Origin: an uncultured Gardnerella sp. | GTDB lineage: Bacteria; Actinomycetota; Actinomycetes; Actinomycetales; Bifidobacteriaceae | Direction of reading: 5' to 3' | Assembly: GCA_947088155.1 (NCBI GenBank) | Contig: CAMUFL010000002.1 | Span: 148,275-212,274, forward strand | Length of the DNA stretch: 64,000 nt | Position numbers: made by a program | Part shown: positions 25,397-34,300 of the stretch, piece after piece | How positions within the stretch are numbered: position 1 is the first letter of the stretch | How the letters are laid out: each line of letters begins with the position of its first letter

Positions 25397-28300
25397 TGAT
25401 TATGGCAGAGAAGCAAGTAAAATCGCTGCACGTTAGTGTGGTGGCAGCCAGGCATCCTGTGTGGGAAGGCGATGCTAAGTTTGTGGTTATTCCTTCTGTG
25501 AATGGCGCAATGGGTGTGCTTCCTGGGCATGAGGCTGTGCTTGCGTTAATTGATCACGGTTTTGTGAAGGTTGACGATTTGAAGGGTGTGCGTCACGTTT
25601 TTAAGGTGACGGATGGCTTCTTCTCTGTTGACGATGATCACATTACGATTGCTGTTGAGCACAGTTGTAACGTTGATAAAGACGGAAATGTGTTGCCTAA
25701 CGCAAAAGTGATTTAGGGTTTGCTTTTATTGCTTACGTAAGTTTTATTGCTTTTGTAAGTTTTATAGACTTGCGCAAGTTGAGTAATCTCTTATTAAGGC
25801 AGGAGTTTGGGATATTCCCAAGCTCCTGTCTTTTTGTTTTATCGCGCGCTTGTAAAGAAAATAGATCTCAGTGGCGAAACACTGTTACTAACTCAGTCAA
25901 GTATCTGAGAAAATAACGGTAATAAGCAAAACACTGTTACTGGCTCAGTCAACGAACTGAGAAAGTAACGGTAATAAGCAAAACACTGTTACTGGCTCAG
26001 TCAAGTATCTGAGAAAATAACGCTCACAAACGAAGCGACGTGTTTGTTTCGAGCAGCCATTGCGCTATGTCTATTACGTGTATTCCTTCAATATCGTAAG
26101 AATCGTGGCGAGTGTTTGCAAGTAGGATTTTAGTGTAAGAGTCTTTTATTGCTTTTAACGGCGAAAGTTCGCGCTCCAATGTGGAATCATCGCTAATGTT
26201 GTCTTCAAAATCGTGGTATTTTTTCACTTTTGAAAGTGGGTGCGTATGTTTGCGTAAAATCGCAATTATCTTTACTTTTGAGTATGCAAAATCGCAATTA
26301 TCTTTACTTTTGATGTTGATTATGGGAAAATAAGTAAAGATTTTAGTGCGTTAGTATTTAGATTCGTCATAATTTATCTCAATAAAGCAAGGCAAGCAGA
26401 AGAAAAAGAAGCGTTAAAAATGTATGATTACTCGGGATTTAACAAAAGGCTACAAGAAAAAGGTATTAAAAAATCGCAGTTAGCAGCCGAGCTGCATATT
26501 TCTTCTCGTACGATTGCAAAAATCTCAAAAGGCGAAAAACTATCAAATTCAGTAATCGCGAAAATTAGCAACTATTTACAATGCAAGCCTAGCGAATTGT
26601 ATCGCGTAATTTCAAGTAACCCTATTTTGCAAAGGCTTAGGGAAGAAAAGGCACATCGTATTCCAGGCGGAATTTATCACGAGCTTCAAATTCGTATGAC
26701 GTACAACTCGAATCATATTGAAGGAAGCCAGCTAAGTGAAGATCAAACTAGGCGAATTTTTGAAACTAATACTATTGATTCTGTAGAAAAAGTGGGGGGT
26801 GTAGTCGATAGCGCGGATTCAAGCGTTGGTGCAGTAGAGAAAACAAGTATTAAGGTTGACGACATTGTTGAAACAGTAAATCATTTTCGCGCGATTGATT
26901 ACTGTATTGATGTTGCTGAAGAGCCTCTTAGTGAAGACATGATTAAGCATTTACATTTGCTGCTTAAACGCGGAACAAGCGACGAGCTTCTACCTTGGTT
27001 CCGTGTGGGTGATTACAAGTTGCGTGCGAATGTTGTAGGCGGTGTGCAAACTTGCGAGCCGCAAAAAGTGCATGATGAGATTAGTAAGCTGTTGGCAGAA
27101 TACCTTGATAAAACTGATTTGCAGCTAGAAGATATAGTTGATTTTCACTACAGGTTTGAACGAATTCATCCCTTCCAGGATGGTAATGGTAGAGTTGGGC
27201 GTTTGATTGCTTTTAAGGAATGCTTAAAGCATAATATCGTGCCATTTATTATTGAGGATCGAAAGAAATACTACTATTATCGCGGTCTCAAAGAATATGG
27301 TAACGAGCGCGGATCCCTAGTTGAAACTTGCTATGACGGTCAAGATACGTTCCGCGCGTTGCTGAAGCTTTTTGGGTTGTGACGCGTTCTGTTTATTGCG
27401 TTTTGAGGCTCGTGTGAATATCACCTCACTTCGCAAAATTAAAAAATTTTCAAATTTGCGAAGTGGGATTTGGCTATTTTTGTGAAGTGGGATTTGCTTG
27501 GCATTAAAGCGTGTAAATCGTGCTACGCCGAAACGAGTGGCGTGATGTTGCTGATGCTGGATTCGTCAAATCGCAAAATGTCGTAGTCGAGTTGGAGATT
27601 GAGCCAAAAATTGGGGGTTGTTCTAAAAGCTTTAGATAGCTTGTATGCCATTGCTACGCTGATCGCGCGTTTGCCGTTTAAGATTTCTCCGATTGCTGTT
27701 TGGGATACACCGATAGTGTGTGCAAGTTTGTATGAGCTGATTTTAAGCGGTTCCATAAATTCTTCGCGCAAAATTTCGCCAGGAGTGCTCAAGTAGTTAT
27801 CTGTGGTAGTCGTCGAAGTAGACATCGTAAGCTTCTTTCGTATTGTTGTTCCATTTGAAAATTAGTCTGTATTGTTTATTTACTCTTATGCTCCAGTATC
27901 CAAGTAGATTGCCTTTGAGTGGCTCAAGCTGATTTCCTGGCGGCGCTTTAAGATCTTGCAAATCGTATGCAGCTTTTAGTATTTGCAGTTTTCTTTTTAG
28001 GATTTTTTCTAATCCAGTGGGATAACCTTTTGGGTACGAGCCGCCGTATAGGTAATCATTAAGTTCCTTTTCTCTGATTTCCATAAAACTATGGTAATGC
28101 ATTGCGTTACTAATGTAAAGCGTTAGCAACGATTGAACGGTTGGCGCGTGATGTTGCGCTATGTGGTTGTTGTGGTTTGCTTGCGTGCCATCGAAACGTT
28201 GTGGTTTTGATGGATTTTTGCAGGATTCTTTGTTGATTCTTGCCATGGGGGGGGGGGTAGATTTGTCTGTAAATGCTTTGTATAGCTGCGCTTTGTTTAA

Positions 28301-31300: not shown

Positions 31301-34300
31301 CTCATGCAAGCATACCTTCTTAACTCTGGGGTTGAGCAAAATCAAATTATATCTATAAACTTTGAGTCGCTCGAGTTTCAAGATATGAGTTACAAAGACT
31401 TGTATAATTACGTTAAAAATAGGATTGAATCTAGCAGTATTGAATCCTCTGATAGTGAGTCTTCTAGTATTAAGACTCCTAAAAAAACGTATCTTTTCTT
31501 TGACGAGCTGCAGCGTATCGATCGTTGGGAAGATGCAATTAACTCGTTTCGCGTAGATTTTGATTGTGATATTTACATAACTGGCTCTAATGCATATCTG
31601 CTTTCTTCTGAGTATTCAACGTATTTGTCTGGGCGGTATGTGGAAGTGAAAATGTATCCGCTTTCGTTCAAAGAGTTCGCTGATTTTCAGGATTATTCCG
31701 TTGAAGAATATAAGTCTCCGCTCGGCGATCTGAAAAAAAGAGCAGTGAATGCTAATGGCGGCAGTGTAGAGCTTGATGACTTGTTTGCAGCTTATATGCG
31801 TTACGGCGGTATGCCTGCAATTTGCGATATTGCTTTAGAATCAGGTTTTAATCAGAGTAGCGCAATGACTTTGCTGGATGGGATTTATTCCACTGTAGTA
31901 GTTCGCGATATACTCGAGCGTGAGAAGCGCCGAGGTCAAAGACAGATTACAGACGCCGACCTTCTTAGAAAAATCATTATGTTTTTGGCAGATAATATTG
32001 GAAATAATACGTCTTTAAATTCTGTGTGTAATACGCTTTCTTCCGAAAATCTTCTTAATGCTGTGGATGGCAATTCGCGTGGATTGCGCGCGCGTGGCGC
32101 TAAACCTGCAACTCAAACCGTGTCCGCTTATGTTAGTGCGTTAAAAGAATCTTACATGTTTTATGATGTTAAGCGCTTTGATATTAAAGGAAAGGATTAT
32201 TTGCGCACTCTTGGCAAATATTACATTGTTGACATTGGGTTGCGTAATTATTTGCTCGGATTTAGAGACAGAGATAGAGGGCATGCGCTAGAGAACGTTG
32301 TTTTCTTTGAGCTTTTAAGGCGCGGATATGATGTTGCAGTTGGCAAAATAGATAATTTGGAAGTGGATTTTGTTGCTACTTCTGCTTGCGAAAAGCTTTA
32401 TATTCAAGTAACTGAAAGTATGATGGATGAGTCTGTGCGCGAGCGCGAGTTAAAGCCGCTTCGTAAGATTCAGAATAATTACGAGAAACTGGTTATTACT
32501 TTGAGTAAGGCTTTAGATGATGACTACGACGGCATTCGCGTTGAAAACATTGTTGATTGGTTGCTTAAGTAGCGTTGCTGATTGGTTTCTTTTTAATTAG
32601 GTGTTATGTAAGTAGGTATTAAAGTGCGTAAATCGTGCTACGCCGAAACGAGTGGCGTGATGTTTTTCTATAGTGCGTTTTTGCAAAAATGTCGGTATAG
32701 ATGAGTATTTTTTGTGCGCTATACCTTCATTTTGCGAAAATGTAGGTATAGGCGAATATATTTTGCGTGCTATTCTGCTATTTTTTAAAAATGTCGGTAT
32801 AGAATGCGACTTTCTGTAAACTATGTCGACATTTTGCCGTTTTTGTTGCTTTGTTGCGGATTTTGACGAGTAACAGCGAGTTTTGACTTAGGGAGTGAAG
32901 CAAGCGATGTTCGGGAATGTTGTTGCGATTGAGCGCGCGCTTGGCACGGGGATTATTATCTCTAGCAGCGTGCCGATTCCTGAGCGCACTGAGCAGCGGA
33001 TTCGCGCTTTTGTTGAAGAGTATGAATCGGTGCTTTCGCGCTTTCGTGCAGATTCGCTTGTTTCGCGCATGGCTCGTGCGGAGCATGGCGGCGATTTTGA
33101 GTTTCCATCGTGGGCTGGGGCGCTTTTTGCAATTTATGACGAGTTTTATGCTGCAACGCACGGAGCTTTCGATGCGTGCATTGGCGCGGATCTGCTTGCG
33201 CTTGGCTACGATAATTCCGTGAAATTTGTTCCAGAATTTACTGTTAGCGAGAGCGAGAATAGTGGCAGTGTCAGCGGCAGCTGGAGCAAATATCGCCGCG
33301 ATCTGCCAGTTACGTGGGCAGATATTTCGAGAGATGACGGCAGTGCAACGCTTCACACGAATCAGCCAGTGCAGCTTGATTTTGGTGCAGCTGGAAAGGG
33401 CTATTTTGTAGATCTTGTAGCGAAGATTATTAAAGAGGAGCTTGGTGGCGATTTTCCTGCGAATAGTGATTTGCCTGCGGATTTTGATTTTTTGGTAAAT
33501 GCCGGCGGCGATATGCGTGCTTGTTTTAGCGAAGAAAATAGCAGAATAAAAGTGGCTCTGGAAAATCCTTTTGATACGACGCAAGCGGTAGGTGTGGCAT
33601 CAATCTTAAGCGGAGCGCTGTGCGCTTCGTCTAGCGCAAGAAGGCGTTGGAAAGTAAAAGACGCAAATTGCCTTGCAGATAATGCTTTTGAATCTAATTT
33701 AATTGCAACTCACTTAATTAACGCTTTAGATGGCGTTCCTTCGCAAAAACTTTCTGCAAGCTGGGCTTATGTTCCTGCGAAAACTTGCGCTTTTCCAACT
33801 GCTTACGCCGACGCACTCGCAACTGCGTTGTTTGTATCGCAAGAAAGCGATTTGCAAAAAATCGTGCAAACTAAAAGCGCTGAGTTTGCTGTAATCTCGC
33901 CAAATCATGCGCTTCGTAAAACGGCCGCCTTCCCCGCTCACTTTTTTGCCGAATAATCACAGAAAAAAGATTGATAATTATCGTTATCAATATCATTTTT
34001 GCAATATTTGCGTGTTTTTTGCGCTTAACTATATCAATCTACTTGATATGTCGATATTATGTACCTGTGGGGCCCTTGATGGCAAGTTTTAGTTGGGAGT
34101 GCTCGATTGGGGTAGAGCACATTGAGAAGTAGAAGTGTAAGAATACGCGAGGAGATGTTATGCGCGCGTGTGTAAAAGTGCGCCGAATTGTTCGTGATTC
34201 GGCTGCACTGATGCTGGCTGTGTGCATGTTAGTGAGTTTCGTTATAAGCTCGTTTGCTATAACTATGCCAGCTTTCGCAACAGATGCAGATCGCTCTTAT

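Follow-up and report, generated by a model that had tools for sequence, protein, structure and literature searches.

The interval between atpC (25402..25716) and apbE (32895..33956) in a 64,000-nt stretch of DNA of an uncultured Gardnerella sp. (assembly GCA_947088155.1, contig CAMUFL010000002.1, positions 148,275 to 212,274; G+C content 42%), called the window below, is probably a defence and toxin-antitoxin (TA) hotspot flanked by core genes, in which homologous recombination at shared linkers reshuffles the cassettes and microhomology deletions erode them. In the window this island forms a chain consisting of atpC, a stump of an ATPase gene (ATPase A), the residual upstream region of the same gene (uA), a gene of a Fic protein with a helix-turn-helix domain (HTH-Fic), HigBA, a leucine-rich repeat (LRR) surface protein, a smaller stump of ATPase A, uA again, the intact ATPase B, a stump of the antitoxin gene higA and apbE. 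A preliminary description of the window, made from the sequence alone, had seen here a mosaic accessory segment, and this was borne out, with Fic, HigA, HigB and LRR confirmed by Pfam. No description of the atpC-apbE island was found in the literature searched on it.

The comparison covered contigs encoding an identical AtpC protein, the atpC neighbourhood of one genome per species (19 Gardnerella representatives) and 13 metagenome contigs picked by a core 20-mer of the higA stump, 35 loci overall. They are labelled L001, L003, etc., and a library of modules was mapped onto all of them to read the order and content of the cassettes. Arrangements between atpC and apbE were mutually different in all 19 species representatives, strains with identical AtpC had at least four of them, and further variants were found in the 13 metagenome contigs. 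The strain alignment suggested in the preliminary description, which might have returned one identical arrangement everywhere, thus gave the opposite result. Homology common to all Gardnerella loci runs to ~25850, and core features end with the intrinsic terminator of atpC (25796..25832, plus strand), in which a T-run follows a 17-bp stem. In 17 of the 19 species representatives the island lies between atpC and apbE; no apbE match was found in the available stretch of L021 and L028.

The cassettes are ATPase A (minus strand), VbhA-Fic240, ATPase B, ATPase C, HTH-Fic, higBA (minus strand), a family of surface proteins with conserved signal peptide and C-terminus and a variable middle, and SoFic-like Fic444 beside apbE. 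Occasional cassettes include a type III restriction-modification system (L005) and sugar-utilisation genes (L072). Cassette orientation is invariant, and order and content vary. Each cassette has its own upstream repeat or palindrome array (uA, uB, uH or T51), and the separators shared between cassettes are a spacer (Lk), the higA stump and the ATPase stumps. Sharp boundaries recur at 26266/8, 27384-6, 28157, 30877 and 32572 of the window. In addition, the scar junctions, namely three deletion alleles of ATPase A (dA1, dA2 and dA3), one of ATPase B (dB) and the higA stumps, are common to several species, in which they stand in different neighbourhoods.

The overall arrangement of the window was found in no sampled genome, and its parts have separate counterparts. 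The left part (the T52 array, dA1, uA and uH) is arranged like L001, HTH-Fic with the spacer and higBA like L014 and L028, the C-terminus of the LRR protein with dA3, uA, uB and ATPase B like L015, and ATPase B with the higA stump like L022. The identity of the cassettes to those of the window is ~89-93% irrespective of the identity of the atpD-atpC core (89 to 98.6%), and because the two are uncoupled, cassettes and scars appear to reassort laterally.

A complete ATPase A, a 432-aa minus-strand ATPase with the domains AAA_14/DUF4143, is encoded directly after atpC in L003-L006, L012 and L023 (10565..11863 in L003). Remnant 1 of the window (26024..26227, minus strand, allele dA1) is an open reading frame (ORF) of 67 codons that retains the last 66 codons of this gene of the PDC-S01 family. 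It shows 79% amino acid identity over 66 aa to residues 367-432 of the ATPase A of L003 (BLASTP, E 2e-33) and 85-97% nucleotide identity to ATPase A genes genus-wide. Remnant 2 (30726..30790, minus strand, allele dA3) retains the last ~20 codons, read from the sequence as DSYDIEVIRIIDIAQWLLNAN*, and is 85-89% identical in nucleotides to 26042..26106 within remnant 1 and 86-94% identical to the ATPase A 3' ends of other loci. The AAA_14 domain is absent from both.

The preliminary description had correctly recognised two remnants of DUF4143-ATPase 3' ends in the same orientation, as well as an intact ATPase gene at 31112..32572, in which AAA_14 and DUF4143 were confirmed. It had, however, linked the remnants to this adjacent intact paralogue, ATPase B, through duplication and deletion between homologous modules, and here it was mistaken. 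Both remnants lie on the strand opposite to ATPase B, the ATPase A and ATPase B proteins share 34% amino acid identity, and remnant 1 matches the C-terminus of the ATPase B of the window with only 36% identity over 59 aa (tblastn). Nucleotide alignment of the remnants to the intact ATPase B gave no match, so they cannot derive from it. A nucleotide alignment to intact genes, proposed earlier as a check, thus fails with the ATPase gene of the window and succeeds with ATPase A of other strains. The remnants are evidently true gene stumps, representing the 3' end of ATPase A and not that of the neighbouring ATPase B.

At the dA1 junction, codon ~372 of ATPase A is joined to a point ~20 nt upstream of the start codon, at a GTCT microhomology. 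According to the junction alignments, the upstream end-point of dA3 is identical to that of dA1, and the best reading is that dA3 arose from a dA1-type allele by one more deletion, between two AATCGT(R)G repeats that remnant 1 retains (26100-26107 and 26208-26215). The dA1 junction also occurs in L001, L013, L072 and L079-83, the dA3 junction in L015 and L027, and the third allele, dA2, in L018, L020, L025 and L077. Remnant 1 is closest (97.4%) to L022, whose core identity is only 93%.

The preliminary description had also reported that both remnants are fused to similar repeat motifs. The motif TTTTYACTTTTGA has seven matches in 64 kb against 1.1 expected, and five of the seven are at 26221-26313 and 30795-30858, beside the remnants. 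The first residual upstream region uA (26204..26265) includes the palindrome CACTTTTGAAAGTG and matches L003 11982-12033 at 85%; its second copy (30776..30865) is a palindrome array with the motif at 30795 and 30846 and a ~87% match to L003 11884-12018. In L003, the full array of five ACTTTYRAAAGT palindromes at 11896-12016 is located between the divergent starts of ATPase A and vbhA. Compared with this array, the motifs are the upstream palindrome array of ATPase A itself, left after deletion of the gene body, and, this being so, a stump fused to the motifs is an internal deletion of ATPase A.

The genes of the antitoxin higA (27523..27825, minus strand; HTH_3, E 5e-11 in Pfam) and the toxin higB (27797..28087, minus strand; HigB-like_toxin, E 8e-23 in Pfam) are intact in the window. 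The toxin gene is located upstream, the antitoxin has an HTH domain and the genes overlap by 29 nt, as is characteristic of HigBA type II TA systems. A higB gene of 95 aa was called in L084. The HigA protein is 100% identical in L014 and L084, and an exact-protein look-up gave only the genome of L014 and three short contigs. A direct repeat of the higA 3' end, reported in the preliminary description, was confirmed as 50 bp with 94% identity and a perfect run of 37 bp. Copy 1 (27500..27549) contains 23 bp of the 3' flank and the last 8 codons plus stop of the intact higA; copy 2 (32615..32664) contains the 3' flank and 27 nt of coding sequence fused to the T51 array. Exactly two copies of a 31-mer taken from the repeat were counted in the window, where chance predicts 0. 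In L022 an intact higA stands after ATPase B, and positions 30877-32664 of the window correspond to L022 10657-12398, the latter running on into higA. On this alignment, ATPase B was once followed by a second higA, of which copy 2 is the stump. A module of ATPase plus higA therefore does exist, in the form seen in L022, although the remnants did not originate from recombination with the adjacent paralogue.

The higA stump (30-60 nt, with the core TACGCCGAAACGAGTGGCGT) is joined to T51 in most genomes. MAFFT alignment of 53 copies from the 35 loci showed all of them in one orientation, 1 to 4 per island. Decay of higA may be followed from an intact gene with damaged higB (L022) to nt 2-152, nt 1-57 and nt 1-35. 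The alignment gave no general within-island homogenisation of the copies, L029 excepted, where two copies are 96% identical over the aligned stretch, identical across a 46-nt core and unlike all others, which points to intragenomic duplication or conversion at least in L029. Since all three scar junctions of the window (dA1, dA3 and the higA stump) recur in other species or metagenomic contigs, they predate the strain; evidently, both stumps of ATPase A and that of higA are old alleles, which came with their blocks by inheritance and were not made in this strain. The island had been described as recombinationally active, and it is indeed a hotspot, judging by the differences between all 19 representatives, but its scars are not recent, their junctions being common to other species.

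A defence character of the island is suggested by the matches of its genes to PADLOC models. ATPase B (31112..32572, plus strand, 486 aa) combines an N-terminal AAA_14 P-loop domain (Pfam, E 8e-34) with a C-terminal DUF4143 (E 4e-15) and a full-length PADLOC match, as is typical of PDC-S01 / COG1373. The E values with the PDC-S01 model PDLC04787 were 2.5e-148 for ATPase B, 3e-141 for ATPase A and 4e-144 for ATPase C, a third paralogue found in L026 and L029. Orthologues of ATPase B were found in L003, L015, L018, L022 and L029. HTH-Fic was assigned by PADLOC to PDC-S04 (E 1e-102), Fic240 to PDC-S04 and Fic444 to SoFic. The PDC-S01 ATPases and the PDC-S04 and SoFic Fic proteins look like candidate defence genes by these models. 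PDC-S01 is known as an abundant candidate defence gene, in which an ATPase is fused to a PD-(D/E)xK domain, and PADLOC phage defence candidates of this kind came from a "guilt-by-embedding" approach (PMC12988326); DUF4143 is classed as PD-(D/E)xK (PMC3424549). PDC-S01 is named in a bioRxiv preprint among candidates selected for a phage-challenge assay.

Homologous recombination at conserved flanks and at internal linkers and stumps would insert, delete and permute the cassettes, and DNA uptake probably precedes their exchange between strains and species. Homologues of competence genes and inter-species lateral gene transfer have been reported for Gardnerella (PMC7324480). RecA-independent deletions between short direct repeats would erode cassettes in place, leaving the 3' end of a gene and its promoter region; the junctions are seen directly, and this mechanism is deduced from them. 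Microhomology deletion fits the junction sequences of dA1 and dA3 and the graded decay of higA and ATPase B, the latter being reduced to nt 1250-1461 (dB) in L005, L021, L026 and L078 and to nt 1250-1279 in L071 and L073. An addictive antitoxin would halt deletions coming from its neighbours, and the TA pair would then decay from the toxin side, which is one explanation of the stump boundary at the stop codon.

Several points weigh against this model of recombination and deletion. Recombination is something that we infer, and transformation of Gardnerella has been inferred from gene content only. For RecA-type recombination, the repeats within the island of the window are short (65 bp at 85% identity; 50 bp with a perfect run of 37 bp). 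On its left side the higA stump begins precisely at the stop codon, whichever of at least five unrelated flanks adjoins it; this is more precise than random deletion predicts, and a site-specific process could be responsible. That the island ORFs examined yielded neither an integrase nor a transposase is in favour of the model, although not every unassigned stretch of every locus was scanned for mobility genes. Finally, validation by experiment is pending for most PDC candidates (PMC12988326).

The mechanism first proposed, repeated unequal crossing-over, duplication and deletion between ATPase-plus-TA modules within this genome, by which the remnants would have been made in situ, now seems unlikely. 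It would account for the pair of ATPase A stumps and the pair of higA 3' ends, each in direct orientation, and both the succession of ATPase B and higA in L022 and the near-identical stumps of L029, pointing to duplication or conversion there, are in its favour. The remnants and the intact ATPase are, however, different paralogues on opposite strands without nucleotide similarity, and all three scar junctions recur in other species, where their contexts differ. Moreover, the two ATPase A stumps themselves differ in context, as one is adjacent to T52 and starts from nt 1 of ATPase A, whereas the other is adjacent to the LRR gene and starts from nt 19. Direct repeats of a gene 3' end bracketing accessory genes are also the classic signature of an integrase-mediated insertion, with which the segment of 26.2-30.8 kb would be a mobile element that targeted the 3' end of ATPase A, and the remnants would be attL and attR, i.e., the duplicated target. 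Such an origin is extremely improbable: integrase and excisionase are absent from the segment, the repeats are only 85-89% identical and their deletion junctions differ, other genomes have the enclosed genes apart from each other and in different orders, and L015 and L027 possess remnant 2 and its junction with no such bracketing. No 4.6-kb block with both stumps moving as one unit was seen in the 35 loci. Similarly, the interval does not belong to integrase-mediated genomic islands, having no integrase and containing repeats of 85-89% identity with different internal junctions.

The precise boundary of the higA stump invites comparison with integron-like arrays; on this view cassettes would join at the core TACGCCGAAACGAGTGGCGT, and a site-specific recombinase whose gene lies elsewhere in the genome would cut there. 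We consider this very unlikely. It agrees with the single orientation of the 53 core copies (1 to 4 per island), with their restriction to the atpC-apbE island, to which all 13 metagenome contigs with the core 20-mer belong and outside of which the window has no copy, with a left boundary constant to the nucleotide against at least five unrelated flanks, with the bracketing of many cassettes by two core copies and with a small ACGCC/GGCGT inverted repeat in the core. Yet the core is the 3' coding end of higA, intermediate stages of its decay exist, and its right boundary is variable. Its conservation is unexceptional, since the divergence from the consensus, counted from the alignment, is ~4%, no better than that of other linkers. 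Among the called genes of the islands and their 10-kb flanks, none proved to have a recombinase domain, and the cassettes have their own promoters and are on both strands. Counting of k-mers in search of a universal junction motif revealed only cassette-specific repeat families and no motif common to all junctions. There is a correspondingly slight chance that the higA stump is the junction site of an integron-analogous cassette-exchange system in Bifidobacteriaceae, served by an unlinked recombinase or by the DUF4143 ATPase-nucleases; it would explain why at least five unrelated cassettes abut at one nucleotide and are permuted without inversion. Reshuffling at shared linkers together with microhomology deletion is, in our opinion, the best explanation of the island.

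Defence hotspots and islands flanked by core genes are known from the pan-genomes of E. coli and Pseudomonas. The Gardnerella island resembles them as a fixed interval between housekeeping genes with strain-specific combinations of defence and TA genes, including matches to PDC-S01, PDC-S04, SoFic and type III restriction-modification. Unlike these hotspots, its variants were found without an integrase or a mobile-element backbone, it permutes one small set of cassettes instead of replacing them by unrelated systems, and it includes surface-protein genes as well as stumps and linkers shared between cassettes. In Neisseria, minimal mobile elements (Saunders and Snyder 2002, a reference in PMC1538595) reportedly consist of alternative cassettes between two conserved genes without mobility genes. 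Conserved flanks, cassettes differing by strain and the lack of mobility genes are common to both, and by analogy the exchange is presumed to proceed via transformation and homologous recombination in the flanks. The Gardnerella island differs in that it chains and re-orders several cassettes and in that internal linkers also appear to serve as homology. The island is a well-resolved example of a core-flanked defence and TA hotspot of the minimal-mobile-element type.

Chromosomal TA systems are described as located in high-turnover spots, with loss by deletion or by pseudogenisation of the toxin (PMC13617665). Decay of higBA in Gardnerella starts from the toxin side in a similar manner, but its stumps persist as recurrent inter-cassette junctions. 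In contrast to the conclusion of the same work that TA and defence genes rarely cluster, TA and candidate defence genes occupy one spot here. Likeness to integron arrays and CALINs (clusters of attC sites without an integrase) consists in a chain of cassettes the size of genes, with a short element recurring between them in one orientation. The differences are that the island has no IntI, that its element is a gene stump and not attC, and that its cassettes, found on both strands, have promoters of their own. Membership in integrons or CALINs was rejected, as no IntI and no match to an attC-like family were found and the cassettes are on both strands with their own upstream arrays.

Gardnerella is a hallmark of bacterial vaginosis, and several species and strains usually share one host and exchange DNA. 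Across the genus, the locus seems to serve as a reservoir of candidate phage-defence genes, Fic toxins, a TA pair and surface proteins that are variable and probably phase-variable. It could be used as a strain-typing marker, as a natural system for studying cassette shuffling without a recombinase and as a source of PDC-S01 and PDC-S04 candidates in a clinically relevant host.

Among individual cassettes, HTH-Fic (26420..27382, plus strand) is a fusion of an XRE-type HTH with a class II Fic domain (Pfam Fic, E 7e-15; HTH_26 and HTH_3). Class II Fic proteins, with an intramolecular inhibitory helix, are characterised by the active site HxFx(D/E)GNGRxxR and the inhibitory motif (S/T)xxxE(G/N). 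The translation contains HPFQDGNGRVGR and SNHIEG, which correspond to these motifs, and the predicted protein may be classified as a class II Fic AMPylase. Its upstream region uH (26266..26419, plus strand) includes two copies of a 26-bp repeat, AAAATCGCAATTATCTTTACTTTTGA, and is linked with HTH-Fic in 11 loci with the left boundary at 26266/26268. The convergent spacer Lk between HTH-Fic and higA (27384..27522) contains a palindrome with 19-bp arms at 27427-27465. The spacer exists as two unrelated alleles, swapped exactly between the two stop codons, and Lk recurs as an inter-cassette linker in at least 15 loci in differing contexts. In the metagenomic locus L075 (641-5981), HTH-Fic, Lk and a higA stump are followed by genes of a 528-aa FHA/LRV protein and of a protein of 1245 aa whose C-terminus carries a REase_MTES_1575 nuclease domain, and this pair may be another defence cassette.

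The LRR surface protein (28370..30574, plus strand; LRR_4 and related families in Pfam) has a signal peptide and an LPATG anchor. Its N-terminal part is variable, in contrast to the conserved C-terminal part from 30095; apart from the latter, the signal peptide alone matches other loci, and the exact-protein look-up gave no identical record. A tract of 11 G (28247..28257, plus strand) is located ~115 bp upstream of this LRR/LPxTG gene between a -35-like TTGATT and a -10-like TAGATT. At the homologous position in 7 other loci the length of the tract is 9 to 12 G (L013 10825, L016 12539, L019 15519, L021 10798, L028 10565, L071 6894 and L081, in the latter on the minus strand, position 120 on the reverse-complemented locus). 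The tract looks like a slipped-strand, phase-variable promoter of the surface-protein gene. Elsewhere in the window, a G10 tract (45605-45614) lies ~120 nt inside the 5' end of a minus-strand gene (42355..45732) of a 1125-aa surface protein with Listeria-Bacteroides repeats, and a G9 tract (55866-55874) lies ~350 nt upstream of a 732-aa ORF without Pfam match; possibly, the genes at these tracts are additional phase-variable genes.

Tandem or palindromic arrays at cassette boundaries look like operator arrays or terminators. The T52 array (25874..26034), between atpC and the 3' end of ATPase A, consists of three tandem 52-bp units, each with a CTCAG-N8-CTGAG hairpin, and also occurs in L001, L003, L018, L020, L023 and L026; a second T52-like array is found ~8.5 kb upstream of atpC in L018 (1459-1657). 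The upstream region of ATPase B, uB (30877..31111, plus strand), carries overlapping palindromes of 28 to 37 bp (AAGTTTRGGTTAT..ATAACYTAAACTT) at 30885-30975, and its left boundary is at 30877 in 5 loci. The T51 array (32665..32894), upstream of apbE, is the right border of the island and contains three tandem 51-bp palindromic units (32668-32837) of the type CTATAC..CATTTTGCGAAAATG..GTATAG. It is present in essentially all loci and in other strains is located upstream of SoFic-like Fic444. Short tandem copies of GCTTGCTTGCGTTT after ATPase B (14859-14939) and of GCCGATGTT after a higA stump (15095-15140) were noted in L003; these microsatellites, which flank the linkers, are slippage-prone tracts at cassette junctions. 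An Rfam scan of 25.5-33.2 kb gave only sub-threshold chance matches (mir-31, rli51 and others), merely reflecting the palindromes. A promoter and terminator scan gave counts no higher than in shuffled controls, and its only useful results were the terminator of atpC and the hairpin in the 50-bp repeat.

The apbE gene of the window shows 81-90% nucleotide identity to all other loci, even where that of atpD-atpC is 97-98.6%, and in view of this divergence the recombining or diversifying zone seems to reach into apbE, a flanking "core" gene. In L028, which represents Gardnerella sp. DNF00502, a vaginolysin gene (16976-18610, minus strand; Thiol_cytolysin, E 9e-134) is located directly after Fic444.

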